64,000 bases of DNA from a virus (lineage: Duplodnaviria > Heunggongvirae > Uroviricota > Caudoviricetes), in the IMG/VR virus record IMGVR_UViG_3300034072_002212, positions 94,417-158,416 of that record, one strand, 5' to 3'. Shown here piece after piece: positions 9,156-51,518 of the stretch. The translations under genes and the position numbers were made by a program. Numbering within the stretch: position 1 is the stretch's first letter; every line of letters starts with the position of its first letter. A model generated the notes under the pieces. That model was given only the letters and a program-made list of their open reading frames with translations, did no database searches and had not been told where the DNA came from.

Positions 9156-9291
9156 TGCGACCCTCTTTGTTCTGTTCTTGCGGGTCGTAGGAAAGCCCTA
9201 CTGTTACCTCCTGAATATACGGAGTCCAGTAGGGCTGCGTCTATAAACTGGAGGCTATGCCGCCCCCATATTTATCGAAAAATCCAGCTTT

Positions 9292-13076: not shown

Positions 13077-13122
13077 ACTGCCTCCCGATCGTTAACGAAC
13101 ACTGAACTCTGTAGATGTTCGC

Positions 13123-13150
13123 AGCATACGGCGAGTTATGACAGTGTCAA
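13123..13150 (-). promoter_or_regulatory. Sigma70-like early promoter
   Basis: TTGACA-N16-TATGCT upstream of the ATPase gene. Confidence 0.6.
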
Positions 13151-13241
13151 TGTCAATGTGGAGTTGACAAGGAGAAAGCCAGCATTTCTGCCGGCTTTCA
13201 CCACGATTCTGTGAACCAAGTTGTGGATAGACTGTGGACAA

Positions 13242-13724: not shown

Positions 13725-13784
13725 CTGTTTTCCTCTAAAATGGTTACACCCAGTCTAACAAACCAGGTGTAACCATTTCAATAA

Positions 13785-14018
13785 TCAGTCTTCGTCTTCG
13801 TCATAGTAGCCATCATCCTCATCCTCGTCTTCGAGGAGGGCTTCAATGGCTTCGTCGAGGTATTCACACTCGCCTTCAATTTCCGACTGTTCGACCTCGA
13901 TGCCGTATTCCTGGAAGAGCCTCAGGAGATGGAGCGCAGCGTCCTGACGCTTACTCGCTCCAATCATATCCCTGAAGTAGTCCCAAAGTTCTACGACCAA
14001 CTTGCTTTCACTGTTCAT
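13785..14018 (-). CDS. Small acidic hypothetical protein
   Basis: MNSESKLVVELWD..., acidic tail; lies between uvsX and uvsY. Confidence 0.65.
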   Translation of the reverse strand: MNSESKLVVELWDYFRDMIGASKRQDAALHLLRLFQEYGIEVEQSEIEGECEYLDEAIEALLEDEDEDDGYYDEDED

Positions 14019-14019
14019 T

Positions 14020-15123
14020 TCACTCGTTCTCTGCGGCGTCCTCGGCGGCAAGTCGTGCAAGCTCTTCCGCCCTAGCAGCCGCTTCCGCTGCCTCGCGACG
14101 CTCAATGTGAGTTGGGAACTCGAGCATCACCAGGTCCAGCAGTTCGTGACCAATTTGCTTGCGGAAATACTTATGCTCGGTGCCGTCCAGCGCCGTGTAC
14201 TTCAGCTTGTTGCCGTCCTTGACAAACAAGCCCTTAGCTTCAAACATATCCAGGAGACCCGAATAGGGGTCCAGACCGCTGTCCCAAGGAATACGGAGCT
14301 CAACAGTCTCAAACGGCTTGTTGTAGCGGGTCTTCATGATCTTGATCTGAGACCTGATACCGTTGACCGTAGTGGTCTTGTTGCCGTCTGCGTCTTCCTT
14401 CAGCTTGAGCTTACGCATTGCCAGCACGATGGACGAAGCGTAGATGAAGCCCTGACCACCAGTGATCTTGTCGTCTGGGTCGAACATATCCTGGCTAGCG
14501 TAGCTGTGGTTGGTCGCAACCAGACCCACGTCCCACTCACCGAACATATTGACGCAGTTACGCACCAGTGCGTTTAGCGCCTTTGGCTTACGACCCATGT
14601 CGCCCTTCATTTCACCAGCTTCGAACTGGTTAACGTCAGTTGGGGTCAGAAGCATACCAAGCGAGTCAACGACGAAGAGGACCTTGGGACGGTCTTCGCG
14701 CGGAGTGCTGGCGTAGGTGCTCTTGAAGTTCTTCATGAAATCGCTGATGATCTTGGCGACGTCATCAATCATCGCAGCGTTGATCTTCAGTAGCTTGTCT
14801 TCGCTGACGTCCACATCAAGCGCGGTCAGCCAGTCCGAGTCAAGTGCGTTCTCAGAGTCGATGAGAACCACAAAGTAGCCAGCATCCTGAGCGTTCTTGA
14901 CGAGGTTGCCGGAAGCGAGATAGGACTTGCCAGAGCCCGACTGGCCGGCAAACATAGTCACCTTGCCTAGTGGAATACCCTTGGTGAAGTCGCCGCTAAC
15001 GGCATAGTTGAGGGCAAAGTTGCCCGTCGAGACCCAATACTTTGGGTCGTTGAAGCCGACGGAAATACCGTCGAGGCCTTTGGTGATATCTTTCCTGAAT
15101 TTGCTGAGATCAACAGGCTTCAT
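14020..15123 (-). CDS. uvsX: RecA-like recombinase UvsX
   Basis: AGQSGSGKS Walker A, IDSENA, VVDSLG, TNH, TGGQG motifs; start MKPVDLSKF. Confidence 0.92.
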   Translation of the reverse strand: MKPVDLSKFRKDITKGLDGISVGFNDPKYWVSTGNFALNYAVSGDFTKGIPLGKVTMFAGQSGSGKSYLASGNLVKNAQDAGYFVVLIDSENALDSDWLTALDVDVSEDKLLKINAAMIDDVAKIISDFMKNFKSTYASTPREDRPKVLFVVDSLGMLLTPTDVNQFEAGEMKGDMGRKPKALNALVRNCVNMFGEWDVGLVATNHSYASQDMFDPDDKITGGQGFIYASSIVLAMRKLKLKEDADGNKTTTVNGIRSQIKIMKTRYNKPFETVELRIPWDSGLDPYSGLLDMFEAKGLFVKDGNKLKYTALDGTEHKYFRKQIGHELLDLVMLEFPTHIERREAAEAAARAEELARLAAEDAAENE

Positions 15124-15254
15124 GGTTATGTTCTCTTTCTTGTCTGGAGCCAAAGTGTCATTGCCCTCTATTTCACGGGCATCCTCCGAACCACGCGGCA
15201 TGACACGCCCGCATAAATGTGGTCACCAGGACGATCTATTTTGTAGAGAAAGGG

Positions 15255-15278
15255 TGTGGGGAGGGAGGTCCCTCCCCA
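15255..15278 (-). terminator. Hairpin after gp32
   Basis: GTGGGGAGGGA-GGT-CCCTCCCCAC inverted repeat just past the stop. Confidence 0.45.
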
Positions 15279-15288
15279 CATTAGCAGA

Positions 15289-16311
15289 TTACTGATTCAG
15301 ACCAGCCTGCTTTGCCTTGATCCTTGCCAGGATGTCAGCTGCGTCAGGAACGCCAGCTGGACGGGCAGGAGCAGCTTCTTCAGCAGCTGGGGCCGGAGCC
15401 GCAGCCTGTGCGCGCTGGAGAGCAGCAAACGGATCAGCAGCAGGAGCCGCCGGAGCAGCAGGTGCCGCTGGAGCAGCAGGTGCCGAGTAACCACCAGCGT
15501 TACCGCCGTTGTTACCGCCGCCGAACGAGCCCTTTGGCTTGTAGAACTGCGACCAACGAGCTGGATCGTAAGCCTCGTCGTTCACCGACGCCTGGAACAT
15601 TTCCTTGATAGCTTCCAGTGCTTCAGCCGAAGGCTTAGCTGGCAGGTAGTCCTTGAGGTTCTTGAGACCATGGGTCTCAACAGCCTGTGCCTCAACATCG
15701 CTCAGAGCGCGTGGCTTCATCGACCACTTGCTGGTGCTGTAGTTGGCGAAGCCGCCCTTTGTGGTCTTGATCAGACGGAAGTCACGACCAGCGACGTAAT
15801 CGGTGGGCAGATCCTCCATCTCAGGATCCATCAGCGAGCCCTTGATGATCTCAAAGATGCTGGTGTTGATCATGAAGCGACGGATTGGGTTCTCAGGAGT
15901 TTCCTTCTCCTCAAAGCCCGACTGGACAACAAAGCCCTGGAACAGGTAGGACTTCTTCTTCCAGTACTTGCGTGCCAGAGCCTGCAGGCTGTCGTCCTTC
16001 CACCATGGGCGGGTCTCAGCCAGAATTGGGCAGGTCTCACCATACATTTCCATGCAGGGGACTTCGACCAGGACCTCGCGGTCATGCTCGCCCTTCACAC
16101 CCTGGAAAGGAAGCTTGATGACCAGGCGCTCGGCCCAGAAAAACGTGTTGTTGGGATCGCCGTCCGGGAGGAAGCGGAGCATCGAGCTGCCGCCTTCAGG
16201 AACATTCCAGAACGGATACATGGAGTTGTCGCCGCCAGTGCGGTTGTTACCGCCTTCAGCACGGGTCTGCTGGGAGAGAAGCTTTGCTCTGATTTCTTCG
16301 AGAGTTGCCAT
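15289..16311 (-). CDS. gp32: Single-stranded DNA-binding protein (gp32)
   Basis: MLRFLPD, VPCMEMYGETCPI, YWKKKSY, GRDFRLIKT, NYSTSKW motifs; low-complexity tail. Confidence 0.9.
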   Translation of the reverse strand: MATLEEIRAKLLSQQTRAEGGNNRTGGDNSMYPFWNVPEGGSSMLRFLPDGDPNNTFFWAERLVIKLPFQGVKGEHDREVLVEVPCMEMYGETCPILAETRPWWKDDSLQALARKYWKKKSYLFQGFVVQSGFEEKETPENPIRRFMINTSIFEIIKGSLMDPEMEDLPTDYVAGRDFRLIKTTKGGFANYSTSKWSMKPRALSDVEAQAVETHGLKNLKDYLPAKPSAEALEAIKEMFQASVNDEAYDPARWSQFYKPKGSFGGGNNGGNAGGYSAPAAPAAPAAPAAPAADPFAALQRAQAAAPAPAAEEAAPARPAGVPDAADILARIKAKQAGLNQ

Positions 16312-16527
16312 TTGGGTGGTCCCTTCTTATCTATTATTGGGCTATCTTTGAGCCATTTGGTTGTGCTAAAAACGCAATGACCTTCCCGGCCCCTTGCGTT
16401 ACTCTTATTTAGCATTCTGAACACCAGAATCGCAAATAAGAATTCACCAGTTTCAACTTTCTGGTGAAGAAAAGAAGAACGTTCCGTCCTCCCTGTAGAC
16501 GCGCTTTCTGCCTTTTGTTGGAGAGAC

Positions 16528-17025
16528 TTATCCCATCCTACGCTCCGACAGAGCCGCTTTCTGTTCCTCCGACCATTGGTAGCCAGTAGCCCGTCCGGGC
16601 TTGCCCTTTAGCGCAGCAGACATCTTAGCCTTTGTGGCTTCTGATTTCGGTTGCGAAGGTAGGGTGCGGTTCTTAGGTTTCCGCATTTTGGATTTGGTTT
16701 CTTCTGTGTGCTTATACCCAGAAGAGCCATCACCTCCTATGGTTAGATTGGTGAGACAACCTGTGCCATCGACCTTTCTACCATACTGAGAGATATACGC
16801 TACCTCTCTTTCCAGGGCAATTTGTTCCTGGAGATTATCCTCCAGGATCTTTACACCTGGTTCCAACCCTTCTGCCCGAATAGCTTTGATGGTAGCCATC
16901 TTTGAGCTGTTCTCATATCGAGCAGAAGGGCGGAGGTGAGATTGTGCTCTATTGCCTACACCCTTACCAATGTAGAAGGGCTCATGGCCCTTGCGTGGAT
17001 CAGTAAGAGCGTAGACATAGAACAT
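16528..17025 (-). CDS. GIY-YIG (LEM-3-like)/NUMOD3 free-standing homing endonuclease
   Basis: FYVYALTDP...PFYIGKG.G.R; LTNLTIGGDG; YKHTEETKSKMR NUMOD3. Confidence 0.85.
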   Translation of the reverse strand: MFYVYALTDPRKGHEPFYIGKGVGNRAQSHLRPSARYENSSKMATIKAIRAEGLEPGVKILEDNLQEQIALEREVAYISQYGRKVDGTGCLTNLTIGGDGSSGYKHTEETKSKMRKPKNRTLPSQPKSEATKAKMSAALKGKPGRATGYQWSEEQKAALSERRMG

Positions 17026-17468
17026 TAAGGCTCAATCCATTCGCCAGTGGAAACCCTGATCTCATCACGCAACTTCAAACCCAGGGCTTCAAGAAGTTCC
17101 CTGACTGTCTTCGTGTAATAATAGGAAGAAGAGGTGAGATTAGCAACACCTTCATTGTTAACCAGATTTCCACTCAGGACAAGATCTTCAGCGACCATGA
17201 CAAGCGGCTGGTGACGAGTAGCTGCCATATAATTGACAACTGTCCGACCCAGGTAAAAAGCCAGCCCAGATTCAAAAGCCTTCTTTTGTGCTGCGGTGTG
17301 ATCCAATCGGTATGTGTCGTTCTTGATCTCAAGATGATCGCGATTAGCAATCAGGATATCCAGAACGTCATTCACAGGCTTTCCAGAAGCACTAGCTAGT
17401 AGTTCGACGGTAGCTGTCTGACCCAACTGGTCCAGACGTTCTAATGTATTAAAAACTTCATTTGCCAT
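17025..17468 (-). CDS. Hypothetical protein (possible winged-helix N-terminus)
   Basis: Start MANEVF; coupled to the endonuclease gene. Confidence 0.5.
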   Translation of the reverse strand: MANEVFNTLERLDQLGQTATVELLASASGKPVNDVLDILIANRDHLEIKNDTYRLDHTAAQKKAFESGLAFYLGRTVVNYMAATRHQPLVMVAEDLVLSGNLVNNEGVANLTSSSYYYTKTVRELLEALGLKLRDEIRVSTGEWIEP

Positions 17469-17551
17469 AAGGCACCTCATTTTGGTTAAGTGAAGCAAGC
17501 AAGCTTGCTCACCAAGTCTAACGTACCCTGTTTCTAGAACTCAAGAAAGAA

Positions 17552-17577
17552 GAGGCGAGGATTGCTCCTCGCCTCTT
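17552..17577 (-). terminator. Rho-independent terminator
   Basis: AGAGGCGAGG-ATTGCT-CCTCGCCTCT hairpin followed by a U-rich run on the minus strand. Confidence 0.7.
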
Positions 17578-17601
17578 GCTTCACTTAACCATCAATACTT
17601 A

Positions 17602-20427
17602 TTACATGCGGAAGCGTGCGTTCTTCAGCAGCGCCTCGAGCTCTGCGCGGAAAGCCTCATCGACTTCCTCGTCACCGTGCTGAACCTTGACGTCGTCGAT
17701 TAGGTCTTCGCCCTGGTCACCACCAAGAACTTCTTCATCACCCTCGAAGTGAGCCTTACGGAGAGAATGTGGGTAATCCTTGCTGAGCTGATCCTCCGCC
17801 TCCGGATCGCTGTTCGCGAACACGTGGTTCAGATCAGAGTCGTCCATCTCTTCTTCGCGCATCTTGTTGAATGCGGTCGAGAGACCTGCGTCGCGCTTCT
17901 TGAGACGCAGAGCTGCCTTTTCATCACCCCTAGCGGCCTTTTTCTCCTGACGGGCACGATCGCTCGCAGCCTTCGAGAAGTAGTCACCATACTTGGCTGG
18001 GCTCAGCTCGTCCAGCTGCTCTTCCTCAGTGGTCTTGCGGATGCTGACCTTCTCTGGCTTGCGATAAGCGCCAGCCTTGGTCAGAACGCCCTTGCTCATC
18101 GTCACAGTCTTGTGATCTGGTAGACGAACGTGCGCGTTGTCAAACGCAACCTTTGCCATCTTGTCATCAAGCGCAACGACTTCGCCCGAACCATAGACCT
18201 TGTGAGTCACGCGGTCACCAACTGCGAGGTCCTTGGAGAACTCTGGGTTGGTTGGCTCTGCCTTGGCCTGAGCTGGCATACCATGCGCCCAGTTGACGTA
18301 TGGCTCTTCGCTCAGCAGGTTCTCAGGATCAAAGCTTTCAAACCACTGTGCCAGTTCAGCTTCCTCACCAAACTTGTTGAACGCAGGGATCTTCTCCATG
18401 TCGTCAACATGCATGGTCTTTGCGCCACCATGAAGGAACTCGACCGAAGCAAGGTCACCCTCAATGGAAATCACGGTTGCTGGACCCATGTCGGTCGCAA
18501 CGTGATCACCGGCCGCAATACCGTGATGCTCTGGCTTCTCTTCGTATTCAGCGAACTCCTGAACCTCTTCAGAGATCTTCCAGCCGTTCTGCTCCAGCAC
18601 AGGCTTAACATCCTTGATAAACAGATCCTTTGCGGTATTAACGATGAAATCTTCAGTGCCATGATAGCCGTAGATGTCGTCGTTCTCCAGGGCCTTCACA
18701 ATATCGTGACAAATACCCTTGATAAAATAGTCCGCATCCATAGGATCAGTTTTGTCTTCGGGGCTAATAGTGTCGTCGAGGAATTCCTCGTAACCACCGT
18801 CCTTGAGGAATTCCTCGGCCGAGAAGTTATCTTCAAAATATTCTAGTGAACGCTCGATATCAGCTTCATTATCCTGATCGTATGGATTTGGAGCATAGTA
18901 GGACTCGTCCATTTCACCGCCATTGAGATCGTCCTCGAGGGTCTTGATCAGCTTGTTTGCGATAGTCGACTCTGCGCCGTCCAGCTTCTTGCCCTCAGCC
19001 ATCTTGTCGATGATGGTCGAAACATAGTTGAGCGTTGCGACGTTCGAGAGCGCGTGCTGGCTTACATAGAGGTCCAGATAAAAACGTGCCTTTGCGCCGG
19101 CATCTGCGAAGCCAGGGACGTGCTCTGGGAACTCAGGAGTTTGGAAGTGGCCGCCCAGGATAGCACGGAGACCATCAGCAAGCTCGTCAATACCCTTCTC
19201 GAATTCCTTACGGTCCTTGGGATCCTGGAAGTCAGTGTTGCCGGTTGCTGCGAAGCGGTGCTTGGTCCACTGAGTTGCGTAGTCCATAACAGCGTCAGCT
19301 TCGTTGATCTGGTAAGCCGCCTCGAGCAGATCCAGAACTTCCTGTGCGTCTTCGAAGATCTGTGCTTCATTGAACGCAACGTGGGAACCAAAGCGTGCGA
19401 AAGTTTCAGTGTCGTAGCCATACTCATCCAGGAGAGCTTCGACGAGTGCGTCAGCAGCGTCCTCCTCGAGAGTGAGGACACCGTGGAACATGGAGTTCTT
19501 GTCGGTCATGTTTTCACCCATTGTTAGCAGAGCGACTGGCATCAAAGACTCTGCCAGAGCATGGTTGGAATCAATCTGTAGAAGGGTCTGCAGGTAACCC
19601 AGACGGTCACTGGTTGCTTCACAGAGGTTAGTGGAGACTGATGGAAGACCAGCTTCCTTGATCGCAGCGTAACCACGGGGGCGAGACATGCTCAAAAATG
19701 CCCTACGAAGCTCAACGATGCGGGTCTTGATTGGGCTACGGAGTGCGATAGCCTCCTCGCCCAAGATGTTACGAGAGTGGTGGATATAGCGATTCACGCG
19801 GCCCAGCGCCAAGCTCTCTTGAGCCAAAATGGTCAGCTGGGTTCCCAGTTCATCATGTGGCTTACCGCCTTGATTGATGTGCTGGGCGAAGGCGCGGCCA
19901 GCCGAGAGATGATTCTCAGCAAACTTGAAACGCTCACCTTCCTTGGTCTCGACAAACATGGAAAGAATGTTGCGACCACGAGCGCCAATGACACCCTCGC
20001 GAACTGGCTGATAATGACGGATGATCAGCTTAGTGGGACCAAACTTCTGATAGGAAGTCTTAGTTGTTCCCCACATGCTGGCTTCCATCATAGATGCCTG
20101 ATACGCGAAGTCCTTGGGCTGAAGCTCACGTCCATACTTGCGGACGTTGAACAGAACATTGTAGCGAGTGGTGATCTGTCGGAGGGTATTGATCAGCTTG
20201 CTGATGCCACGAACATCGGTGCTCTGGCTCAAGTAGAGCTTGACCTCAGAGTCCGAGCCCGCCTCGATCACGCTTACCATGATATTATCTGGTGTTGCGA
20301 AAACTCGACGGGCCTTCTTGGGCTCATAAGTCTTGTTGCCATCCTCACCATAAAGAGTCAGAGTCTTACCTGATCCCTTGAGGACCTGGAACAGCTCTTC
20401 ACTCAGGCTATCAAACAACGAGCTCAT
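17602..20427 (-). CDS. Large acidic virion (probably internal head) protein with two SH3/Tudor-like modules
   Basis: 941 aa; late promoter 20452-20457; many (L/I/M)xE sites; GDHVAT..GPATV and GDRVTHKVYGSGEVV modules. Confidence 0.6.
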   Translation of the reverse strand: MSSLFDSLSEELFQVLKGSGKTLTLYGEDGNKTYEPKKARRVFATPDNIMVSVIEAGSDSEVKLYLSQSTDVRGISKLINTLRQITTRYNVLFNVRKYGRELQPKDFAYQASMMEASMWGTTKTSYQKFGPTKLIIRHYQPVREGVIGARGRNILSMFVETKEGERFKFAENHLSAGRAFAQHINQGGKPHDELGTQLTILAQESLALGRVNRYIHHSRNILGEEAIALRSPIKTRIVELRRAFLSMSRPRGYAAIKEAGLPSVSTNLCEATSDRLGYLQTLLQIDSNHALAESLMPVALLTMGENMTDKNSMFHGVLTLEEDAADALVEALLDEYGYDTETFARFGSHVAFNEAQIFEDAQEVLDLLEAAYQINEADAVMDYATQWTKHRFAATGNTDFQDPKDRKEFEKGIDELADGLRAILGGHFQTPEFPEHVPGFADAGAKARFYLDLYVSQHALSNVATLNYVSTIIDKMAEGKKLDGAESTIANKLIKTLEDDLNGGEMDESYYAPNPYDQDNEADIERSLEYFEDNFSAEEFLKDGGYEEFLDDTISPEDKTDPMDADYFIKGICHDIVKALENDDIYGYHGTEDFIVNTAKDLFIKDVKPVLEQNGWKISEEVQEFAEYEEKPEHHGIAAGDHVATDMGPATVISIEGDLASVEFLHGGAKTMHVDDMEKIPAFNKFGEEAELAQWFESFDPENLLSEEPYVNWAHGMPAQAKAEPTNPEFSKDLAVGDRVTHKVYGSGEVVALDDKMAKVAFDNAHVRLPDHKTVTMSKGVLTKAGAYRKPEKVSIRKTTEEEQLDELSPAKYGDYFSKAASDRARQEKKAARGDEKAALRLKKRDAGLSTAFNKMREEEMDDSDLNHVFANSDPEAEDQLSKDYPHSLRKAHFEGDEEVLGGDQGEDLIDDVKVQHGDEEVDEAFRAELEALLKNARFRM

Positions 20428-39475: not shown

Positions 39476-39540
39476 GTCCGATCCTCCCTCTGGGCTACCC
39501 ATATTTAGTGATAAGTAGTTGACTGGCTAGGAGGATCGGT

Positions 39541-43224: not shown

Positions 43225-43649
43225 GCAAGGTAGTAGAAGAGCGCAGGGTTATCCGCGTGACCACCACGTGGGGTTATGATCGTGATATGGCTCTGAAATA
43301 CATCTACATTCCCACCAAAGACAATGACCACAAGGGCGCAACCCTTCGCGCCCATGAGGGTTACCGTGGGGTAGATGATCTGCGCGATGCCACGGACATG
43401 AACACCTTTCCCGAAGACCGAGTGATGAGGATGTTCTTCAGCATCAAGGAAAGGCTGTGTGCTAAGAGCTCAATTGATCTTGTGAATCTGAAGCTCACCA
43501 TGGAAGCGACTCCTGTGACCTTCGATGAAGATGAGATGAGGGAATATCTGCGCGCCACGGCTTTGAAGAAGCTGTCAGAGGATGAGATCATCGCTCTCGG
43601 CGTGGGCAACCTTGCCATCTACGACAAGCTGAAGAACCACAACGCTTGA
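43221..43649 (+). CDS. Hypothetical protein (ALKKL.E.E motif family)
   Basis: C-terminus TALKKLSEDEIIALG. Confidence 0.7.
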   Translation: MSKVVEERRVIRVTTTWGYDRDMALKYIYIPTKDNDHKGATLRAHEGYRGVDDLRDATDMNTFPEDRVMRMFFSIKERLCAKSSIDLVNLKLTMEATPVTFDEDEMREYLRATALKKLSEDEIIALGVGNLAIYDKLKNHNA

Positions 43650-43673
43650 CTCCTGAACACAACCTGTTACGGT
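43646..43673 (+). promoter_or_regulatory. Sigma70-like early promoter
   Basis: TTGACT-N16-TACGGT with TG extension, then AAGGAG RBS. Confidence 0.55.
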
Positions 43674-43690
43674 GACACAAAGGAGAACGT

Positions 43691-44323
43691 ATGGGCGTTG
43701 TTACAGTCTATAAGGTCAAGGACCTGGAGACCGGCCTCTTTCTGAACAAGAGTTGCGGCTGGGACAAAAAGGGCAAGACCTGGGAGAGTCTCGGTAAGCT
43801 CAAGCTGACGCTGGGTAACAACGGCTACTTCTCCGATCGCCACAACGGCGAGAGGCTCTTTGGTGACGACGTAAAGATCATCTCAATCAAGATAGTCGAA
43901 ACCGAGGACAACACCAGCGACATCGACGACTTCATCGAAAAGCATCGGCGCTATCAGGCGCTGGGCAAGAAGTTCGGCCGGTCGTTTCAGGACCTAGTCG
44001 AGCGCATCGAAGCCCAGGGACAGAACGAACAGTTCCAGTGGGTCCTAGCCGCCGAGGGAAGCTGGGACTGGACCAACAAGGTTCCCACGGGCGACTTCGC
44101 AGAGCTGCTTCAAATCTGCAAGGACCTCAAGCTCAAGCAGAACAAGGATTTCAAGCGCGCCAGCAATTATGGTGAAGGCGGCTGTGTGGCCTTCGCAAGC
44201 AAGCAGGTGGCGATGACGGTGCGCCTTTCGATGCGCGGTCGGTGTAAGGGTATCGACATCAAAGAATTTGTGGAAACAAATCTTGACGAGACCGAAACGG
44301 ACGCGCTAAATAGTAGCACATAA
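43691..44323 (+). CDS. Hypothetical protein
   Basis: 210 aa; YKVKDLETGLFL N-terminus; likely paralog of 53631-54215. Confidence 0.7.
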   Translation: MGVVTVYKVKDLETGLFLNKSCGWDKKGKTWESLGKLKLTLGNNGYFSDRHNGERLFGDDVKIISIKIVETEDNTSDIDDFIEKHRRYQALGKKFGRSFQDLVERIEAQGQNEQFQWVLAAEGSWDWTNKVPTGDFAELLQICKDLKLKQNKDFKRASNYGEGGCVAFASKQVAMTVRLSMRGRCKGIDIKEFVETNLDETETDALNSST

Positions 44324-44389
44324 CAAGCGTGGATCCCAGGGTCGCACCTTGTTATAGACAACAACCTATCAAACGGTAAGGTGAGTAAA

Positions 44390-45373
44390 ATGAATCTCAA
44401 GAACCAAATCCTCGATCTTTCGCGTCAGAACAACATCGGCGCACTCTCCCCATTCATCGACAAGATGTTCGACGAACAGCTCGCTGCAGGCGTCTTCCCG
44501 ACCACTGCCAAGCTGGAACAGGTTCGCGACGACATCATCGCTTTCCTCGTCGGCTATCGCGAGCAGACGGGACGTGACACGGTGGTCCTCGGAATGTCGG
44601 GCGGTGTTGACTCGGCTCTGACCGCAGCACTGTTCAAGAGCGCCGGCTGGCGCGTGGTCGGCTTCACGCTGCCCATCAACCAGAACCCAGACGAGACGGC
44701 GCGCGGCATCGAGGCTTGCGAAGCCCTCGATATCGAGCATTTCCAGAAGGACCTGACCAAGGCCTACAATGCTCTGCTCGATGAAGTCGCCGAGCATGAT
44801 CCCCTGCTGCTCGATCTCGACAGCAAGGACACGGCAGTTCTCATCCGTCGCGGCAACATCCGCGCCCGTGCTCGCATGATCACGCTCTACAACATGGCCA
44901 ATTTCCACAACGGCATCGTGGCCTCGACCGACAACTTCAGCGAACTGGCGGCCGGCTTCTGGACCCTCCACGGCGACGTAGGCGACGTTTCGCCCATCCA
45001 GGCTCTGCTGAAGAGCTGGGAGGTCCCCTACATTTCGAGCATCGCCGGCGTGCCCGAGAGCACCTATCGCGCCACGCCGACCGATGGTCTCGGCATCAGC
45101 AATGGTGACGAAGCGCAGCTGGGCGCCAGCTACCTCGAATGGGACATCATGGTCAACGCCATGATCCAGTATGATCTGGCCTCGCTGGAGGCAATGATCG
45201 CAGAGAGCGGCGACATCCGCGCTGCGGAGGTGTTCGAGGCAGTCACGCGCCGCCTAGGCGGCAGCTGGTTCAAGCGCATGAATCCGGTCAACACCAAGCA
45301 CCCGCTCTTCCCCGAGCGGTATGAGCAGCTGGCCGGCGTCGACCAGGAGTTCCATCCCGCGGTCGTCCGCTAA
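44390..45373 (+). CDS. nadE: NH3-dependent NAD+ synthetase
   Basis: LGMSGGVDSAL, GNIRARARM, STDNFSE..AGFWTLHGD, PTDGL, DEAQLG..Y. Confidence 0.92.
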   Translation: MNLKNQILDLSRQNNIGALSPFIDKMFDEQLAAGVFPTTAKLEQVRDDIIAFLVGYREQTGRDTVVLGMSGGVDSALTAALFKSAGWRVVGFTLPINQNPDETARGIEACEALDIEHFQKDLTKAYNALLDEVAEHDPLLLDLDSKDTAVLIRRGNIRARARMITLYNMANFHNGIVASTDNFSELAAGFWTLHGDVGDVSPIQALLKSWEVPYISSIAGVPESTYRATPTDGLGISNGDEAQLGASYLEWDIMVNAMIQYDLASLEAMIAESGDIRAAEVFEAVTRRLGGSWFKRMNPVNTKHPLFPERYEQLAGVDQEFHPAVVR

Positions 45374-45441
45374 CCACCTTTCGGTTGCGATAGCATGGAA
45401 ACATGCTATCGCACCAATTGTAACCAGAAAGGAGGCCAGCA

Positions 45442-46755
45442 ATGACCGATCTCGCGCTACGCGCCCATAACAAGAACTGGCGCATCGACCCGATCGTCCG
45501 ATCGCTCCTCGATACAGACTTCTACAAGCTCATGATGGGGCAGTTCATCTGGGAACGCTACCCCATGCACGTCGTCACCTTCGGCCTGAAGAACCGGACC
45601 AAATCCGTGAATCTCGGCCGAATCATCGACGAAGCAGAACTCCGCGCACAACTCGACTACGTGAAGTCGCTGCGCTTTACCAAGAACGAGCTCATCTGGC
45701 TCCAGGGTGCGACCTTCTATGGCCAGGAGCAAATCTTCAAGCCCGGCTATATCGACTTCCTCCGCCGGCTTCATCTGCCCGACTATGACCTGTCGCGCAA
45801 TGATGACGGCGACTATGTGCTGACCTTCACGGGAACCTGGCCACACGTCACGTTCTGGGAGATCTACGCACTCTCGATCATCAGCGAGCTCAAGAGCCGG
45901 GCGGCAATGCGTTCGCTCAGCAAGTTTGAGCTGGACGTTCTCTACTCCTGCGCCAAGTCCAAACTGTGGGGCAACCTTCAGAAGATCAAGGTCGCAGGCG
46001 TTCGGGGTCTCTCGGACATGGGCACCCGCCGGCGCCACTCGTTCCTCTGGCAGGAATGGGCTGTTGGTGCGGCGCGCGAGGTGCTGGGCGAGGGTTTCAT
46101 CGGAACCTCGAACGCATACATGGCGATGACCATGGATCTCGAGGCAATCGGCACCAATGCCCATGAACTGCCCATGGCCCTCACGGCTATCAGGGCTGGC
46201 CAGGGCGCCACGGACGATGAGCTCAAGCAAGTCCAGTATGAGGTCCTCAAGGGCTGGCAGAACCAATACTCGGGCAATGTGCTCGTGGCCCTGCCAGACA
46301 CCTTCGGAACCACGCAGTTCCTCAAGGACGCCCCACAGTGGGTCAGCCAGTGGCGTGGTTTCCGCCCCGACAGCAAGGCTCCCGATGCGGCGACCGAAGA
46401 GCTCATCGGCTGGTGGAAGCGCATGGGTATGGACCCAGCTAAGAAGCTGGTTCTCTACAGCGACGGTCTGGATGCGGACGAGATTGTCCGCATCTGGAAC
46501 AAGTGGAATGGCGTCGTTCAGGTCGGCTTCGGTTGGGGCACCAACCTTACCAACGACTTCAAGGGATGCCATCCGCGCGGTGAGCACACCCTGGACCCGC
46601 TCTCGCTGGTCTGTAAGGTCACGGCGGCCGACGGTCACCCGGCGGTCAAGCTCTCGGACAACTATACCAAGGGCACCGGCCCCGAAGATGAGGTAGCTCG
46701 CTATCGTAAGATCTTCGGCAGCGAGGGCATGAAGGATGCCCCGGTCTTCGTCTAA
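45442..46755 (+). CDS. pncB: Nicotinate phosphoribosyltransferase
   Basis: LLDTDFYK, DMGTRRRHS, GTSN, GTNAHE, RPDS, YSDGL, FGWGTNLTND, VKLSDN. Confidence 0.93.
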   Translation: MTDLALRAHNKNWRIDPIVRSLLDTDFYKLMMGQFIWERYPMHVVTFGLKNRTKSVNLGRIIDEAELRAQLDYVKSLRFTKNELIWLQGATFYGQEQIFKPGYIDFLRRLHLPDYDLSRNDDGDYVLTFTGTWPHVTFWEIYALSIISELKSRAAMRSLSKFELDVLYSCAKSKLWGNLQKIKVAGVRGLSDMGTRRRHSFLWQEWAVGAAREVLGEGFIGTSNAYMAMTMDLEAIGTNAHELPMALTAIRAGQGATDDELKQVQYEVLKGWQNQYSGNVLVALPDTFGTTQFLKDAPQWVSQWRGFRPDSKAPDAATEELIGWWKRMGMDPAKKLVLYSDGLDADEIVRIWNKWNGVVQVGFGWGTNLTNDFKGCHPRGEHTLDPLSLVCKVTAADGHPAVKLSDNYTKGTGPEDEVARYRKIFGSEGMKDAPVFV

Positions 46756-47093
46756 TGGCTAAGAGCAATCCTCGATACGAGTGTTCTGGTTGTAAGATGC
46801 GGAACACTCGTAACCAGCTCAAGGGCACCAACGGCCATTGTCTTCACTGTAAGACACCGATGCCCAATGCGGCTTGGATGGGAGGCCAACAAGCTTCCCT
46901 GTGTCAGCTGCTCATGGTCCCCAGGGCTGATGAGGATGAGCTCAAGAATATCAGTCAGCAGTCCGGCCTTTCTGAGGCTGAAATCATGAGCGCCGCAATT
47001 CAGATTCAACTACAAAAGTGGTTGCTCGAACCAGAAAATGTTGTAAAGCAGGTGAAGCAAGATCTAATGCTGGCCAAGCTTTACAGGAGATAA
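46755..47093 (+). CDS. Zinc-ribbon plus possible ribbon-helix-helix protein
   Basis: CSGC...HCLHC; LKNISQQSGLSEAEIMSAAI. Confidence 0.5.
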   Translation: MAKSNPRYECSGCKMRNTRNQLKGTNGHCLHCKTPMPNAAWMGGQQASLCQLLMVPRADEDELKNISQQSGLSEAEIMSAAIQIQLQKWLLEPENVVKQVKQDLMLAKLYRR

Positions 47094-47096
47094 CAA

Positions 47097-47921
47097 GTGG
47101 CATACCTTTATCCTTTCCGCATGGCCAGTGGCACCGCAACCATGCTCCCCATCGACGCAAAGCGCCAGCGGGTCCTTCTCGGTGTCCGTTCCAAGAATGC
47201 GTGGGTCTATCCCGGCAAGCTGAGTCTGGCCGGTGGCTTCATGGAAGCCCGCTTCACCGAAGAGCAGAACACCGACCTTATGTCGCAGGCGCGGCAGGCT
47301 GTTCTGAACCTGCTAGGTTGGAAGCTGGTCGCTGACGAGTTCTCCGAAGGTGAGAATCTCGAGGAGTGCGCGGTTCGCGAACTCGGCGAAGAGATGCTCA
47401 TCAATGTCGCAATCGATCAGCTCAAGATGTTCAGCGTTCGGTCCAACGCGCGCACGGACACTCGTGCTCACGTGATCAACGCCTGCTACTATTTCGAGAT
47501 GACCGACGAGCAGATTGAAGCGGCAACTGCCGGCGACGATCTTGAGGAACTGGTCTGGCATGACATGGCGGACTTCGACATCGAGATCCCCTATGCTGCC
47601 CTGGAAGCCAAATATGACATGGCGTTCAACCACTTCGAGGTCATGCTCCAGGGCATCGCCGCGTGGCGCAAGGAACAACGGTTCAAGATCCTAGAGGCCC
47701 AGGTCGCCTCTATGGAGAATGTCCGCGGGTGGCAATACTTTCCGATCATGATGCCCCTGACCGCTAAGGGCGATGGACCTGCAACGATTGGCCATGATGC
47801 CACGCAAATCAAGTTCGAGGTCTGGGACCAGGCTCTGGAGACCTACGGATCGTTTGAATTCCTTCCGGACGCGATCAATGAAGCAATGCGTCTCAATCGC
47901 AAGGCAATGCTCGATGACTAA
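47097..47921 (+). CDS. Nudix hydrolase (probable ADP-ribose pyrophosphatase)
   Basis: LAGGFME...GENLEECAVRELGEEM Nudix box; RTDTRAHVI (R-D-R motif); NHFE. Confidence 0.85.
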   Translation: MAYLYPFRMASGTATMLPIDAKRQRVLLGVRSKNAWVYPGKLSLAGGFMEARFTEEQNTDLMSQARQAVLNLLGWKLVADEFSEGENLEECAVRELGEEMLINVAIDQLKMFSVRSNARTDTRAHVINACYYFEMTDEQIEAATAGDDLEELVWHDMADFDIEIPYAALEAKYDMAFNHFEVMLQGIAAWRKEQRFKILEAQVASMENVRGWQYFPIMMPLTAKGDGPATIGHDATQIKFEVWDQALETYGSFEFLPDAINEAMRLNRKAMLDD

Positions 47922-48519
47922 GAGGACAGCTCTCGCAATCATGCGGACCATGCCTCTCCACAAGGGGCATACCACTATCGCCCAGCAGATGATTGACAAC
48001 TATGATACAGTCATCATCGGCAATGGTTCTGCGGACAAGCCGATCAGCATCCAGAATCCCTTCCCCGTGGAAGTGCGGATGGAGATGTGGAAGCGCGTCT
48101 ATGGCGATCGCATCAAGCTGGTCCCTCTGACTGACCTCGGCGCGACCAAGGACACCAACGAATGGTGCGACTATGTGCTGAAGAAGATCAGGGGTCTCGG
48201 CCTGCCTGATCCCACAGACTATTGGACGGGTTCGCCCGCCGACGCCGTGTGGTATCGCGGTCGCTTCTTCAACAAGGAGTGCGGTTCACCGGCTGACGAC
48301 AATCCTGAGGATTTCATCGCCCGCTACATGCCCAACGGTGTGTTCCGGCAGCTTCACATGGTCGAGCGCACGGGCAACTATATCCCAAGCGCCACTGAAC
48401 TGCGTCAGTTCATGGTGACGCGAGACGACGGTTGGAAGCGTTGGGTTCCTGCTGTAATCCATGATCTCGTCGAGGAGCATTTCCCCGAAGAGTTCAAGGT
48501 AGCGCACGAGGACAAGTAA
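47914..48519 (+). CDS. nadM: NadM/NadR-type (N)MN adenylyltransferase
   Basis: MRTMPLHKGH (HxGH), IGNGSA, NPF...R, PSATELR. Confidence 0.85.
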   Translation: MTKRTALAIMRTMPLHKGHTTIAQQMIDNYDTVIIGNGSADKPISIQNPFPVEVRMEMWKRVYGDRIKLVPLTDLGATKDTNEWCDYVLKKIRGLGLPDPTDYWTGSPADAVWYRGRFFNKECGSPADDNPEDFIARYMPNGVFRQLHMVERTGNYIPSATELRQFMVTRDDGWKRWVPAVIHDLVEEHFPEEFKVAHEDK

Positions 48520-48851
48520 TGGGCGATATGGGAGATCTGTTCAACGATCTCAAAGACATGCGGAAGACTCGAGCCGAGGAACGCACCGCTGAGTTCATGG
48601 CGCGCAAAGCTGATCTTGCGGACAAAATTCGCGAGATTGCGGAAGGTCGCCGTCACGAACTCTACACGGATATCGACGCCAGTGGAACCTGGAATATCAG
48701 GATTTACGGTCGACAAGCCGGACGAAAGGGCGCTACGATCCAATACTATCCCACCAAGGGCACTTGGCAGGTCAAGGGTAGGATGTGGCACGGTGGTCTT
48801 GACTCGTTTGAGAACTGGATCACCAAGAAGCTCGAGAAGCTTTTGTTTTAA
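48519..48851 (+). CDS. Hypothetical protein
   Basis: 110 aa; MGDMGDLFN, YYPTKGTW. Confidence 0.65.
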   Translation: MGDMGDLFNDLKDMRKTRAEERTAEFMARKADLADKIREIAEGRRHELYTDIDASGTWNIRIYGRQAGRKGATIQYYPTKGTWQVKGRMWHGGLDSFENWITKKLEKLLF

Positions 48852-48860
48852 GGGAAGACA

Positions 48861-49319
48861 ATGTCCGCAGTAGTTCAGAGCATCGTATCGGTTGAGCCCC
48901 ACGGGGAGAACCTGAGCATCGTGACCACCAGCGAAGGCCACAAGGTCATCGCCAACAAGCGGGAGGATGGCTCGTTCCGCTGGACTGTGGGCGAACCGGT
49001 GGTCTATGTCAGCGAAGGTTCAATCCTTCCTGAGGACGTGCTCAAGGAGCGCGGCTACTGGGACACCGAGAAGGATCGTGGTCTGCTGGACGGTGGCCCT
49101 CGCAATCGCGTCAAGATGAAGAAGCTCGCGGGCTTCGAGTCGCGCGGCCTTCTGTTCAAGGTCGGCCATCCCGGCGAGGACTGGACCGACGACAACAAGG
49201 ATCCTGAGGTCATCGGCTGGGTTCTGCGTGAGGGACTTCAGCCCGAGGAAGACACCTTGTATGTCAAGATGGGCCAGGACGTCTCTGAGTTCTTCGGCAT
49301 CACTGAGTTCCAGGGATGA
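48861..49319 (+). CDS. OB-fold tRNA-binding-like protein (resembles the N-terminal domain of DRB0094-family RNA ligases)
   Basis: VEPHGENL, VGEPVVYVSEGSILP, RVKMKKLAGFESRGLL, GQDVSEFFGI. Confidence 0.65.
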   Translation: MSAVVQSIVSVEPHGENLSIVTTSEGHKVIANKREDGSFRWTVGEPVVYVSEGSILPEDVLKERGYWDTEKDRGLLDGGPRNRVKMKKLAGFESRGLLFKVGHPGEDWTDDNKDPEVIGWVLREGLQPEEDTLYVKMGQDVSEFFGITEFQG

Positions 49320-49618
49320 TCCGCGAGACTGAGTTCAAGCTCTGGTGTGAGGACATTCGTACGCGCTTCGAAGAGGCGTTCAGTGAGCGTCCTAACCCCA
49401 CACCCAACTTGGTCAATCTGACCTCCCCGGTTCAGGAGCGCATCATGCGGTGCGCCGTCGAAGCACGATATTTCGGGATGGACGACAACCGAGATCACCT
49501 CGCTATCCTCGCGCATCACACGCTTTTGAAAGACGATCTCCGCTTCAAAGGATATCGTCGCTTGAACTTTCTGGAGCACCTGTATGGTATCCAGGAAAAG
49601 CAGGGGCTCTTGACATAG
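49316..49618 (+). CDS. Hypothetical protein
   Basis: 100 aa coupled ORF. Confidence 0.5.
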   Translation: MIRETEFKLWCEDIRTRFEEAFSERPNPTPNLVNLTSPVQERIMRCAVEARYFGMDDNRDHLAILAHHTLLKDDLRFKGYRRLNFLEHLYGIQEKQGLLT

Positions 49619-49647
49619 AGCTAATCCTGTGTTATCGTAGGTAAATA
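49610..49647 (+). promoter_or_regulatory. Tandem early (TTGACA-N17-TATCGT) and late (TAAATA) promoters for pncA
   Basis: TTGACA 49610-49615, TATCGT 49633-49638, TAAATA 49642-49647. Confidence 0.6.
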
Positions 49648-49714
49648 GGGATGGAAGCTAATCGCAAGGTTGAGCAACCATCCCTTGAAACCTCAATGTA
49701 AGTTGGAGGTCATT

Positions 49715-50341
49715 ATGACGATTCAAATCGTGGGCACGGACGCCCATATCATCATCGACATGCAGAACGGCTTCGTGCCCGGTGGCGGTCTTCCCGTCGC
49801 AGGCGGCATGGATATCCTACCCGTCATCAATCGCGTGAACAAGAAGTTCGAGCGCGCGTTCATGAGCCAGGACTGGCACCCCGCAAATCATGGTTCCTTC
49901 GCATCGCAGCACGGCGTGGCTCCCTTCACGATGGTCGAGCTCGACGGTCTGCCGCAGGTCGCATGGCCGGACCACTGTATCCAAGGCACCCACGATGCGG
50001 CCTTTGTCGAGGGGCTCGATGACAGCAACGTGGCCGCGATCATCCGCAAGGGCATGGATCCGCTGGTCGACTCCTACAGCGCATTCTACGACAATGCGCG
50101 TCGCAACACTACCGGTCTGACCGACCTGCTCAAGGCACACGGCATCTGGCGCGTGTTCCTCTCGGGGCTGGCTCGCAACTATTGCGTGGCGTTCAGCGCG
50201 CTCGACGCGGTCACCGATGGCTTCACGGCCTATATCATCGAAGATGCCACCAAGGCAATCGACGATGGAACCAACGACGCAATGACGGAGCGACTGAAGG
50301 CGGCGGGTGTGAGCCTGATCACCTCGGCTGATCTTGCGTAA
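49715..50341 (+). CDS. pncA: Nicotinamidase
   Basis: IIDMQNGF, SQDWHP..H.SF, WPDHC, RKG...DSYSAF, GLA.NYCV. Confidence 0.93.
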   Translation: MTIQIVGTDAHIIIDMQNGFVPGGGLPVAGGMDILPVINRVNKKFERAFMSQDWHPANHGSFASQHGVAPFTMVELDGLPQVAWPDHCIQGTHDAAFVEGLDDSNVAAIIRKGMDPLVDSYSAFYDNARRNTTGLTDLLKAHGIWRVFLSGLARNYCVAFSALDAVTDGFTAYIIEDATKAIDDGTNDAMTERLKAAGVSLITSADLA

Positions 50342-50814
50342 TGGGCACGATCTTCAAGAGCCCTGCGCCGCTCCAGCCGCAATGTAATCGCACCATCTTC
50401 CTCGCCGGCGGCATTTCCAATTGTGCCGACTGGCAGGAAGGGGTTGCGGTGCGAATCGCCGCCGAAGTCCCCGATTGCGTGATCTACAATCCGCGCAGGG
50501 ACGACTTCGATATGTCGGCCTATGAAGAGGTTTCGCGTCAGCAGATCATTTGGGAGTTTCATGCTCTCCGAATGTCCACTGTGAACCTCTTTTGGTTCCC
50601 GGCCGAAACCCTCTGCCCCATCACGCTCTTTGAGTATGGAAGCGCCATCGAGCGTCTCCATGCTGGGGCTGTGATGTGTGGCACTCATCCCGACTATCAG
50701 CGTCGCTTCGACCTCATTGAGCAGACCCGTTTGCGTAACGGCATGCCGATCTTCGATGATCTGGATCATCTGGTCAGCGAGACGATCATCCTGCTCAAAA
50801 GCATTCCTGCTTGA
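50341..50814 (+). CDS. Nucleoside 2-deoxyribosyltransferase-like protein
   Basis: IFLAGGI...DWQ, YNPRR, QIIWE, CPITLFEYG. Confidence 0.8.
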   Translation: MGTIFKSPAPLQPQCNRTIFLAGGISNCADWQEGVAVRIAAEVPDCVIYNPRRDDFDMSAYEEVSRQQIIWEFHALRMSTVNLFWFPAETLCPITLFEYGSAIERLHAGAVMCGTHPDYQRRFDLIEQTRLRNGMPIFDDLDHLVSETIILLKSIPA

Positions 50815-50838
50815 CAGTTCTCCTTTCCTTGCTAGATA
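50811..50838 (+). promoter_or_regulatory. Sigma70-like early promoter
   Basis: TTGACA-N16-TAGATA. Confidence 0.55.
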
Positions 50839-50858
50839 GGTGAGGAAAGGAGACATCA

Positions 50859-51518
50859 ATGGCACCGCCCAAATATCCGCGCACGTTCCATTGGCCGTGG
50901 TCCCAACAGGTCCACAGCGATGACTCCTACCATCAGGATCCCAGCTTCTTCGTCGGCAAGGACGTCTACATCAGCGAAAAGCTAGACGGTGGCAACACCG
51001 CGCTGAACGCAGGCGAAGTCTACGCGCGCTCCACTGGTCAGGCAGCAACGCAGGGCTGGTTTGCCCATGTGAAGAAGTATCACGCCTGGAAGACCGCAAC
51101 GCTGGATCCCAGCATCACGATCTATGGTGAGGACCTCGCGGCACTTCACTCCATTCCCTACCAGCTTCCCATGGACGAGACCTACAAGGTCTTTGCCGTG
51201 CGCGAAGGGGATGAGTTTCTGCCCCTCTATAGTGTCCTCGCTATCGCGGCACAGCTGAACCTCGACGTGGCACCTCGGGTCCACTATGGGACGTTCAATT
51301 CGGTCGAAGAGATCACCAAGTTCTTTGAGACTGAGATTCAGAAGCCTAGCGTCTACGGCACCCAGCGCGAGGGGTTCGTGATGATGACGCCCTATGGCTT
51401 CATGGCCGATGAGTTCAGCCAGAACGTCTGCAAGTATGTTCGCAAGAACCACGTTCAGACGGATGAGCACTGGACCAAGAACTGGCAGTGGAATGATCTG
51501 ACTCCACCCAGCTACTGA
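50859..51518 (+). CDS. RNA ligase (Rnl2-like adenylyltransferase domain)
   Basis: KYPRTFHWPWS, SEKLDGGN (KxDG), IYGE, EGFV, KYVRKNHVQ. Confidence 0.85.
   Translation: MAPPKYPRTFHWPWSQQVHSDDSYHQDPSFFVGKDVYISEKLDGGNTALNAGEVYARSTGQAATQGWFAHVKKYHAWKTATLDPSITIYGEDLAALHSIPYQLPMDETYKVFAVREGDEFLPLYSVLAIAAQLNLDVAPRVHYGTFNSVEEITKFFETEIQKPSVYGTQREGFVMMTPYGFMADEFSQNVCKYVRKNHVQTDEHWTKNWQWNDLTPPSY

Follow-up and report, generated by a model that had tools for sequence, protein, structure and literature searches.

A probable nicotinamide salvage module with structured leaders before nadE and pncA in a jumbo phage related to Atu_ph07 and Phosso

The depletion of NAD+ is a widespread bacterial anti-phage strategy, and nicotinamide together with ADP-ribose are the products of TIR, SIR2 and related NAD+-cleaving enzymes (NADases). 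Three routes by which phages rebuild NAD+ have been shown experimentally. NARP1 and NARP2 were described in a paper in which nicotinate, PncA and NadE are unmentioned (bioRxiv 10.1101/2024.02.11.579819), and NARP3 consists of PnuC and NadR (PMC13464706). For jumbo phages, Iyer et al. (2021) reported an amidated system only, and Li et al. (2024) counted 174 'NAD-jumbo phages' in which the salvage or Preiss-Handler pathway is complete; a pncB-nadD-nadE cluster is among their examples, and phage pncA is mentioned (PMC11662467). The present analysis concerns a 64,000-nt stretch of DNA (hereafter the window; positions 94,417 to 158,416 of IMG/VR record IMGVR_UViG_3300034072_002212, a fragment of 181.8 kb with an estimated completeness of 39%), in which five genes of NAD+ metabolism form a cluster. 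This cluster is probably a phage-borne nicotinamide salvage module of alphaproteobacterial type, by which the NAD+ pool of the host would be maintained or replenished during infection. A sequence-only reading of the window had presented it as a possible third NAD+ reconstitution route, a count that NARP3 has made out of date. The novelty which that reading claimed for the gene set is also reduced in part, because jumbo-phage pncB-nadD-nadE clusters and a mention of pncA appeared in 2024 (PMC11662467); the link between nicotinamidase and phage NAD+ reconstitution is unpublished in the searched literature, in which no NARP4 was found either.

The five NAD genes were recognised by family scans within 6 kb of a tight row of open reading frames (ORFs), which occupies 44.3-50.9 kb of the plus strand:

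44390-45373, plus strand: nadE, single-domain ammonia-type NAD synthetase, 327 aa (family scans, PDB comparison)
45442-46755, plus strand: pncB, nicotinate phosphoribosyltransferase, 437 aa, with a GGAGG ribosome-binding site ahead (family scans, match to 1YBE)
47097-47921, plus strand: Nudix hydrolase of the ADP-ribose pyrophosphatase / NrtR / NadM-Nudix type (PF00293, fold search)
47914-48519, plus strand: NadM-type (archaeal-type) nicotinate/nicotinamide mononucleotide adenylyltransferase, 201 aa (motifs, profile matches)
49715-50341, plus strand: pncA, canonical nicotinamidase, 208 aa (NF008623, match to 2WT9)

The one-strand cluster that had been proposed from the letters was borne out by the ORFs and family scans, with all five genes at these coordinates, and the catalytic motifs were found intact in all five proteins, as had been claimed. 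Inspection of start codons indicated that nadM most likely begins at 47914, where it overlaps the Nudix stop by 8 nt, and not at the ORF start of 47773, from which the overlap would be 149 nt; pncA most likely begins with the ATG at 49715.

The PncB protein exceeded the cut-off of NF003704 (435 bits, cut-off 379) and fell slightly short of that of TIGR01514 (254 bits, cut-off 270), and its best solved relative is the nicotinate phosphoribosyltransferase (NAPRTase) of A. tumefaciens (1YBE; E 5.7e-159, residues 2-436). By these family scores it is predicted to be of the nicotinate and not of the nicotinamide type. PncA reached 198 bits with NF008623 (cut-off 174), its best PDB match is the Acinetobacter nicotinamidase 2WT9 (3e-53), and both the triad (D15, K112, C157) and the metal site (D53, H55, H87) are present; its closest relative is the PncA of the IMG/VR contig L016 (48%). 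NadE matched Pfam NAD_synthase (5.6e-40) and TIGR00552 (133 bits, cut-off 63.65), carries the SGGVDS P-loop, resembles the single-domain NAD synthetases of known structure and is 52-57% identical to alphaproteobacterial NadE. The best families of the cytidylyltransferase-like ORF are the archaeal nicotinamide mononucleotide (NMN) adenylyltransferase and the bifunctional NadM-Nudix protein. Its HxGH and SxTxxR motifs (H16-x-G18-H19 and S159-A-T-E-x-R164) are invariant, and the top 11 matches of a profile search against the PDB were all NMN adenylyltransferases, followed by phosphopantetheine adenylyltransferase at E >0.1. The Nudix protein matched PF00293 (3.4e-10), with E86, R94, E95, E98 and E99 invariant in nine homologues and an insert of about 30 aa in the Nudix box loop.

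The cluster is not peculiar to the window. Close PncB homologues were found at 13 IMG/VR loci, four of them on contigs of 416-480 kb, and the order nadE-pncB-Nudix-nadM-nicotinamidase is kept in Sinorhizobium phage Phosso and in the nine IMG/VR relatives with contigs that extend across the region. The full order of the relatives is nadE, pncB, (a protein with Cys pairs), Nudix, nadM, (small ORFs), an isochorismatase-family gene and, usually, a deoxyribosyltransferase-like gene. Agrobacterium phage Atu_ph07 possesses all five functions in dispersed form, with Nudix, nadM and the isochorismatase-like gene located 3-5 kb from pncB on the opposite strand and nadE about 90 kb off; the paper describing this phage names only Nudix, NadR and PnuC (PMC6102473). 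The isochorismatase-like gene of the relatives has no BLAST-detectable similarity to the window PncA. Its product retains the Asp, Lys, Cys triad and the Asp-x-His...His metal site, has PncA as its best NCBIfam family (below the cut-off), and its catalytic and metal positions align with those of the window PncA residue for residue (hhalign E 1.4e-4). Every member of the clade therefore appears to hold a nicotinamidase-type gene in this slot, which exists in two forms among the phages, canonical in the window and divergent in its relatives. The NadE slot is filled in three ways: by the window type (58-78% identity in nine loci), by a 606-aa two-domain glutamine-dependent NadE (loci L004 and L013, and, by frame length, L010 and Atu_ph07), and by a distinct single-domain type in Phosso. 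Since five functions have been kept despite the exchange of two genes by non-orthologous versions, these comparisons are good evidence that selection acts on the pathway rather than on a single gene. Two further observations concern the relatives: in locus L005 a ribosome recycling factor gene (14835-15338; Pfam RRF, 7e-50) stands between the nicotinamidase-like and deoxyribosyltransferase-like genes, and the complete relative that contains L004 encodes a second, weaker NadE-like protein (G002:C1:113844-114521; 108 bits) far from the NAD module.

Other entries into NAD+ synthesis were looked for as well. No Nampt was detected in the fragment or in four relatives, each of which has a single NAPRTase-family gene, of the PncB type. 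Neither the fragment (about 39% of the genome) nor the four relatives contained a Prs-like gene (Adps; PF13793), a family that was matched in 14 of 14 control genomes, and PnuC (PF04973) was absent from the fragment and from two complete IMG/VR relatives, while it is present in Atu_ph07 and Phosso. Because the fragment is without Nampt, Prs/Adps and PnuC, nicotinamide would enter through PncA and PncB only.

The presence, integrity and conservation of the gene set are thus confirmed, and its reading as a pathway is sound. We infer the substrate specificities and the direction of flux from the gene identities, motifs and conservation. Nicotinamide would be deamidated to nicotinate by PncA, and PncB would join the latter to phosphoribosyl pyrophosphate (PRPP) of the host to give nicotinate mononucleotide (NaMN). 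The NadM-type enzyme would then convert NaMN to nicotinate adenine dinucleotide (NaAD), which the single-domain NadE would amidate to NAD+; the NadM-type enzyme would probably also re-adenylate NMN released by an NAD-dependent DNA ligase of the phage. The Nudix protein would split ADP-ribose into AMP and ribose-5-phosphate, which the host would convert back to PRPP. As predicted from sequence, this series from nicotinamide through nicotinate, NaMN and NaAD to NAD+, with hydrolysis of ADP-ribose beside it, is well supported by homology. The deamidated four-enzyme route with an ADP-ribose Nudix protein had already been claimed in the sequence-only reading, and family membership, motifs and clade-wide conservation now speak for it, whereas the use of NaMN by the NadM-type enzyme is still presumed.

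Several points weigh against this reading. The NadM-type protein scores 52 bits against an NCBIfam cut-off of 127, and its sequence does not distinguish a preference for NaMN from one for NMN. The specificity of the Nudix protein is suggested by fold and profile similarity, the sequence match to NadM-Nudix having an E value of 1e-3. A phage PRPP synthetase was not found by PF13793 in the incomplete fragment or in the four relatives. Moreover, the best solved relative of NadE is 3FIU, which we take to be the Francisella NMN synthetase, and this would also fit an order in which NaMN is turned first into NMN and then into NAD+.

Both nadE and pncA are preceded by a promoter and a leader whose structure was established by comparison, folding and covariation:

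44283-44389, plus strand: promoter and structured 5' leader of nadE
49610-49714, plus strand: promoter and structured 5' leader of pncA

Each leader comprises two hairpins. In that of nadE, hairpin 1 has an apical GAUC-loop-GGUC with a bulged G, and hairpin 2 (CCUAUC-loop-GGUAAGG) is predicted to sequester the Shine-Dalgarno sequence. The corresponding elements of the pncA leader are an apical UAAUC-GCAA-GGUUG and CCUCAAU-loop-GUUGGAGG, the latter with the same predicted effect. The folding energy is -25.0 kcal/mol for pncA (z-score -3.5) and -20.8 kcal/mol for nadE (z-score -2.3). Across the leaders compared, the outer pairs of hairpin 1 vary with compensatory changes and its loop is variable. 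The apical stem A-A-U-C / G-G-U-U (core AAUC-loop-GGUU) is nearly invariant, including a U-G wobble and the bulged G, and in hairpin 2 a CCU-rich arm pairs with the Shine-Dalgarno sequence. When 16 leaders were aligned to the model, in an alignment that is somewhat favourable because it was fitted to that model, 95.6% of the cells were paired as against 29-43% in slid controls, 11 of the 17 paired positions had changed on both sides, and the covariation score was 0.50 as against 0.05-0.12. The conservation of the U-G wobble argues for an RNA element rather than a DNA operator.

The two leaders also recognise each other. A covariance model built from nadE leaders only found the nicotinamidase leaders of the window (E 1.4e-4 to 1.6e-4), of L006 (1.1e-4 to 1.3e-4) and of L011 (about 1e-3), and a model of the nicotinamidase leaders found the nadE leader of L005 (E 0.006). 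Neither model found a further convincing site in the 181-kb fragment or in the loci of the relatives; a weak match at L023:252-316 was rejected, as the core motif is absent. A 17-mer of nadE hairpin 2 had 16 exact matches in IMG/VR, of which 12 are true leaders, each followed by nadE of either type; the remaining four, without hairpin 1 or nadE, were rejected as chance. A regular expression for the AAUC-N4-GGUU core was dropped as too degenerate to inform. The leader remains when the ORF behind it is exchanged, in the NadE slot as well as in the nicotinamidase slot. An Rfam scan of 43500-51500 returned no family at E values up to 1, known NAD+ riboswitch classes included.

We infer the regulation from this RNA structure. 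The two genes appear to be co-regulated through the common leader, with hairpin 2 hiding the ribosome-binding site, and the bulged conserved stem, with loops that vary, resembles an operator bound by protein more than it does an aptamer for a metabolite. It would go considerably further to regard the leader as a new cis-regulatory RNA, either a metabolite sensor or an operator for a phage or host protein, that opens the ribosome-binding sites as NAD+ falls or its breakdown products rise, so that the phage triggers NAD+ rebuilding upon NADase-type immunity; this proposal is rather unlikely to hold as a whole. In any case, the leader is a candidate regulatory RNA that belongs to two NAD genes in particular, so that the time at which the module is switched on becomes a testable question.

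The hexamer TAAATA had been named as a late promoter at 44307 and 49642. Both sites are present, and the motif behaves as a promoter-like signal: 17 copies occur in the window where 5.4 are expected, a number reached in none of 100 shuffles, and 16 of the 17 are intergenic, most of them 15-113 nt ahead of an ORF start. The promoters are not simply late, however, because the relatives keep a -35 element TTGAC(G/A) and, as the -10 element, TATAAG, TATAAATA or TAAATA at nadE. In the window, the nadE promoter consists of the -35 element TTGACG, 18 nt and TAAATA (44307); in the relatives, TTGAC(G) stands at the same fixed 18-nt spacing from a hexamer that is TAAATA, TATAAA or TATAAG depending on the phage. 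The pncA promoter of the window reads TTGACA-17-TATCGT, followed by TAAATA (49642). Each of the seven leaders compared keeps a TTGACA-17-TATAAT-like nicotinamidase promoter, and in six of them TAAATA comes within a few bases after it. From these sequences, transcription by host sigma70 (early) or dual transcription fits better than a purely late mode. As an observation on the 17 TAAATA sites in general (for example those at 39507, 28145, 9274 and 1560), (U)GGGUAG or GGGAUGG often comes after the hexamer, with a hairpin behind it; late-type transcripts would seem to share a conserved sequence at their very start, together with a stem-loop at the 5' end.

As to the reason for which the module is kept, two purposes fit, and they are mutually compatible. 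Extra salvage capacity would be of benefit during the long infection by a jumbo phage, in which NAD+ is used by an NAD-dependent ligase and by other consumers; such a DNA ligase is encoded by all four complete relatives, and none was seen in the incomplete fragment. It is also known that jumbo phage PA5oct up-regulates the pncA-pncB1-nadE operon of its host (PMC7318152). The selective reason may, on the other hand, be counter-defence of the NARP kind, in which host TIR, SIR2, DSR or SEFIR NADases yield nicotinamide and ADP-ribose and the module recycles both, and this explanation is a tentative one, somewhat less likely than not. Nicotinamide arises from NAD glycohydrolase activity or ADP-ribosyl transfer, and the ligase reaction yields NMN. 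Because nicotinamide is not a product of the ligase, carrying PncA and PncB would pay only where NAD+ is cleaved or niacin is imported, which favours counter-defence. An ADP-ribose-type Nudix protein would deal with the second cleavage product, the sigma70-like promoters fit early expression, two slots have been refilled with their function retained, and NARP1-3 serve as precedents. This explanation has to face, however, a higher ATP cost than that of NARP2 and the requirement for host PRPP, as well as the established inhibition of sirtuin-type NADases by nicotinamide, the removal of which could speed NAD+ cleavage. The ligase genes of the complete relatives make plain supply a sufficient reason, and in the searched literature no paper ties nicotinamidase to phage NAD+ reconstitution. 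A role of the module against NAD-depleting immunity is accordingly offered as a hypothesis, and a plausible one. If it is true, the deamidated route via nicotinate is the fourth by which phages rebuild NAD+, and one composed only of ordinary host-type enzymes, which sequence screens for anti-defence genes would miss. Atu_ph07 and Phosso are cultured members of the clade, so the module could be deleted there.

The order of the last two steps may be different from that given above. Francisella pairs NadM with a NadE homologue acting as NMN synthetase, whereas Acinetobacter has a bifunctional NadM alongside a conventional NAD synthetase, and archaeal NadM is reported to be bifunctional for NMN and NaMN (PMC3376133). 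If the phage followed the Francisella order, NadE would convert NaMN to NMN, from which an NMN-preferring NadM would make NAD+. This is quite unlikely, in spite of the precedent, of the efficient use of NMN by NadM-family enzymes (PMC3376133) and of the divergence of the window-type NadE within its family (138 bits, compared with 210-227 for the versions of the relatives). The lead of 3FIU as best solved relative of NadE (1.4e-21) over the ordinary archaeal NadE of Pyrococcus (2E18; 2e-19) is small, and the NadE subfamily of the window is fused in Azospirillum to a CinA/PncC (NMN deamidase) domain, which would form a futile cycle with an NMN synthetase. In the relatives, moreover, the same slot behind the same leader holds a two-domain glutamine-dependent NAD synthetase. 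On contig L016 (56 kb, IMG/VR), a gene for a NadM-Nudix fusion is followed in one tight row (7965-18045) by pncB, pncA, a GatB/YqeY-domain gene and a two-domain nadE, with a Ros/MucR regulator and a methionyl-tRNA synthetase at the flanks. This contig may come from a bacterium or from a further large phage, and it is an example of one gene set in which NadM works with a conventional NAD synthetase. The Azospirillum fusion, the two-domain NadE in the slot and the L016 row are the reasons for which the order NaMN, NaAD, NAD+ is favoured. No NAD genes were found in the neighbourhoods of the bacterial window-type NadE homologues of Tropicibacter and Azospirillum.

The Nudix protein is nearest in fold and profile to the domains of NadM-ADP-ribose pyrophosphatase (NadM-ADPRase) and NrtR, and its catalytic glutamates are invariant, for which reasons it is best read as an ADP-ribose pyrophosphatase. 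The profile search matched 2FML, 2YYH, 3I9X, the NrtR Nudix domain and NadM-Nudix, and the fold search was headed by 2FML, the NadM-ADPRases of Francisella and Synechocystis (in their Nudix domains) and the Nudix domain of NrtR in complex with ADP-ribose. With 274 aa, the protein is longer than those of the relatives (164-238 aa) owing to a C-terminal extension specific to the window (47646-47921); in the AlphaFold model the core has a predicted local distance difference test score (pLDDT) above 90, and residues 212-240 are below 50. That it might instead act as a regulator of the NrtR kind, which senses ADP-ribose, or hydrolyse another nucleotide, with the small ORFs and the deoxyribosyltransferase-like gene belonging to an unrelated nucleotide pathway, is very unlikely, because the NrtR (3GZ5, 3GZ8) and 2FML matches, the long C-terminal helix with its extension and the weak sequence similarity to characterised ADPRases are set against catalytic residues invariant throughout the clade, no detected winged-helix domain, a C-terminal part that is a single long helix in the relatives and of low confidence in the window, and a position next to NadM that mirrors the fused NadM-ADPRase. 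The Nudix gene and nadM together look like a split and reordered NadM-ADPRase. Outside the window, a second small HxGH-type nucleotidyltransferase was noticed (193 aa, motif PTKGH; G000:C1:173031-173612, equal to L018:732-1313), which has weak similarity to NMN/NaMN adenylyltransferases and counterparts in the relatives and could be a second adenylyltransferase.

Further ORFs are interleaved with the NAD genes or adjoin them:

46755-47093, plus strand: small 112-aa protein (weak DUF7129 match; two Cys pairs in homologues)
48519-49618, plus strand: three conserved small ORFs (110, 152 and 100 aa), of which the 152-aa ORF resembles the N-terminal domain of DRB0094-type RNA ligases
50341-50814, plus strand: nucleoside 2-deoxyribosyltransferase-like gene (PF15891), the start of which overlaps the pncA stop codon

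The gene of the 112-aa protein is kept behind pncB in close relatives, and the Cys pairs of its homologues suggest a zinc ribbon. In most relatives the deoxyribosyltransferase-like gene accompanies the nicotinamidase slot, on its downstream side, and it is a possible sixth member of the module. The model of its product has a pLDDT of 88, the sole close solved relative is the uncharacterised 4MCJ, and the nucleoside 2-deoxyribosyltransferase, DNPH1 and TIR folds are more distant; fold and profile searches gave no functional assignment, and the protein could act on an NAD-derived nucleotide. Upstream of the pair formed by pncA and the deoxyribosyltransferase-like gene, the 152-aa ORF (48861-49319) is similar to only the N-terminal domain of the RNA ligases, and downstream of it a 219-aa ORF (50859-51518) corresponds to an RNA ligase catalytic domain; the nicotinamidase cassette with its own promoter may therefore sit between two parts of one ligase.

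The window is part of a soil jumbo phage of about 470 kb that is kin to Atu_ph07 and Phosso. A NadE identical to that of the window was found on a separate 468-kb contig, and the only DNA runs that contain the stretch come from subsurface and soil metagenomes of a single study, with no RNA sequencing run found to contain the phage. The nearest named phages are Phosso (469 kb) and Atu_ph07 (490 kb), with a PncB identity of 56-57% for both. When the cassette was compared by megablast with 50,697 phage records, there was no match, and relatives surfaced at the protein level only; among these deposited records PncB occurs in 13 and PncA in 12, several of which are very short or doubtful as phage. 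The cassette is flanked by a T4 gp15-like tail sheath stabiliser upstream and an RNA ligase downstream.

Among the known systems near to the cassette are the NAD-jumbo phages (PMC11662467; for example Kuafu_71 with pncB-nadD-nadE), which are likewise jumbo, combine clustered pncB and nadE with a complete deamidated route and were reported from sequence only. The features of their Preiss-Handler clusters recur here in the 468-kb contig with the identical NadE and in the five genes within 6 kb, with a NadM-type enzyme replacing NadD. The lineage and hosts are different, however, since this is a Rhizobiales-type soil phage and those are gut Bacteroidota phages. Moreover, the NadM-type enzyme comes with a separate ADP-ribose-type Nudix protein, the nicotinamidase is a fixed member, and nadE and pncA have a common structured leader. 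NARP2 (Nampt and a bifunctional NMNAT-Nudix protein, as in NadV/NatV of Vibrio phage KVP40) also starts from nicotinamide and uses a NadM-family enzyme and a Nudix ADP-ribose hydrolase. In contrast, the window has no Nampt, and deamidation comes first, at the expense of two extra enzymes (PncA, NadE) and more ATP; its adenylyltransferase and Nudix protein are separate genes in reversed order, and counter-defence is a putative role here. The Prs-like ADP-ribose pyrophosphokinase (Adps) that marks NARP1 was missing from the fragment and the four relatives, as mentioned above. NARP3 (Sci Adv 2026, PMC13464706) is likewise a phage-encoded NAD+ route, and Atu_ph07 and Phosso also carry PnuC, with NadR in Atu_ph07 (PMC6102473), but its precursor and enzymes differ from those of the window, the 181-kb fragment and two complete IMG/VR relatives being without PnuC.

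The same five functions, with NadM replacing NadD beside NAD synthetase, are found in the NadM-based salvage of bacteria (Acinetobacter, PMC3376133; also the L016 row), and the PncB of the phage very closely resembles that of Agrobacterium (1YBE). The phage version differs in being viral, in its interleaved phage-only small ORFs, in the splitting of the NadM-Nudix fusion and in the exchange of NadE and PncA among phages. In the bifunctional NadM-ADPRase of Synechocystis and Francisella, the NMNAT domain is N-terminal to Nudix, whereas the window has two genes, Nudix and then NadM, with the 8-nt overlap; both domains are nearest to that family. An uncultured 735-kb phage (LR756501.1, 419000-436000) carries, in a span of about 8.5 kb, genes for an isochorismatase/PncA-like protein, a NadR-like protein, PnuC, a TonB-dependent receptor, NadE and PncB, and this cluster is, as judged by its gene content, an independent and larger NAD module with an outer-membrane receptor gene. 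Clusters of this kind have been reported from sequence before, and the gene set of the window is a variant of them, with NadM and a split ADPRase in place of NadD and a fixed nicotinamidase, and not a new category.

Structured leaders that occlude the ribosome-binding site of NAD-pathway genes are likewise known from the NAD+ riboswitches of class I (nadA motif) and class II (pnuC motif). The phage motif differs from both in its simple two-hairpin form, its apical stem with a bulged G, its variable loops and the lack of an Rfam match. This structured leader, specific to NAD genes, is the most original element of the locus and is new here.

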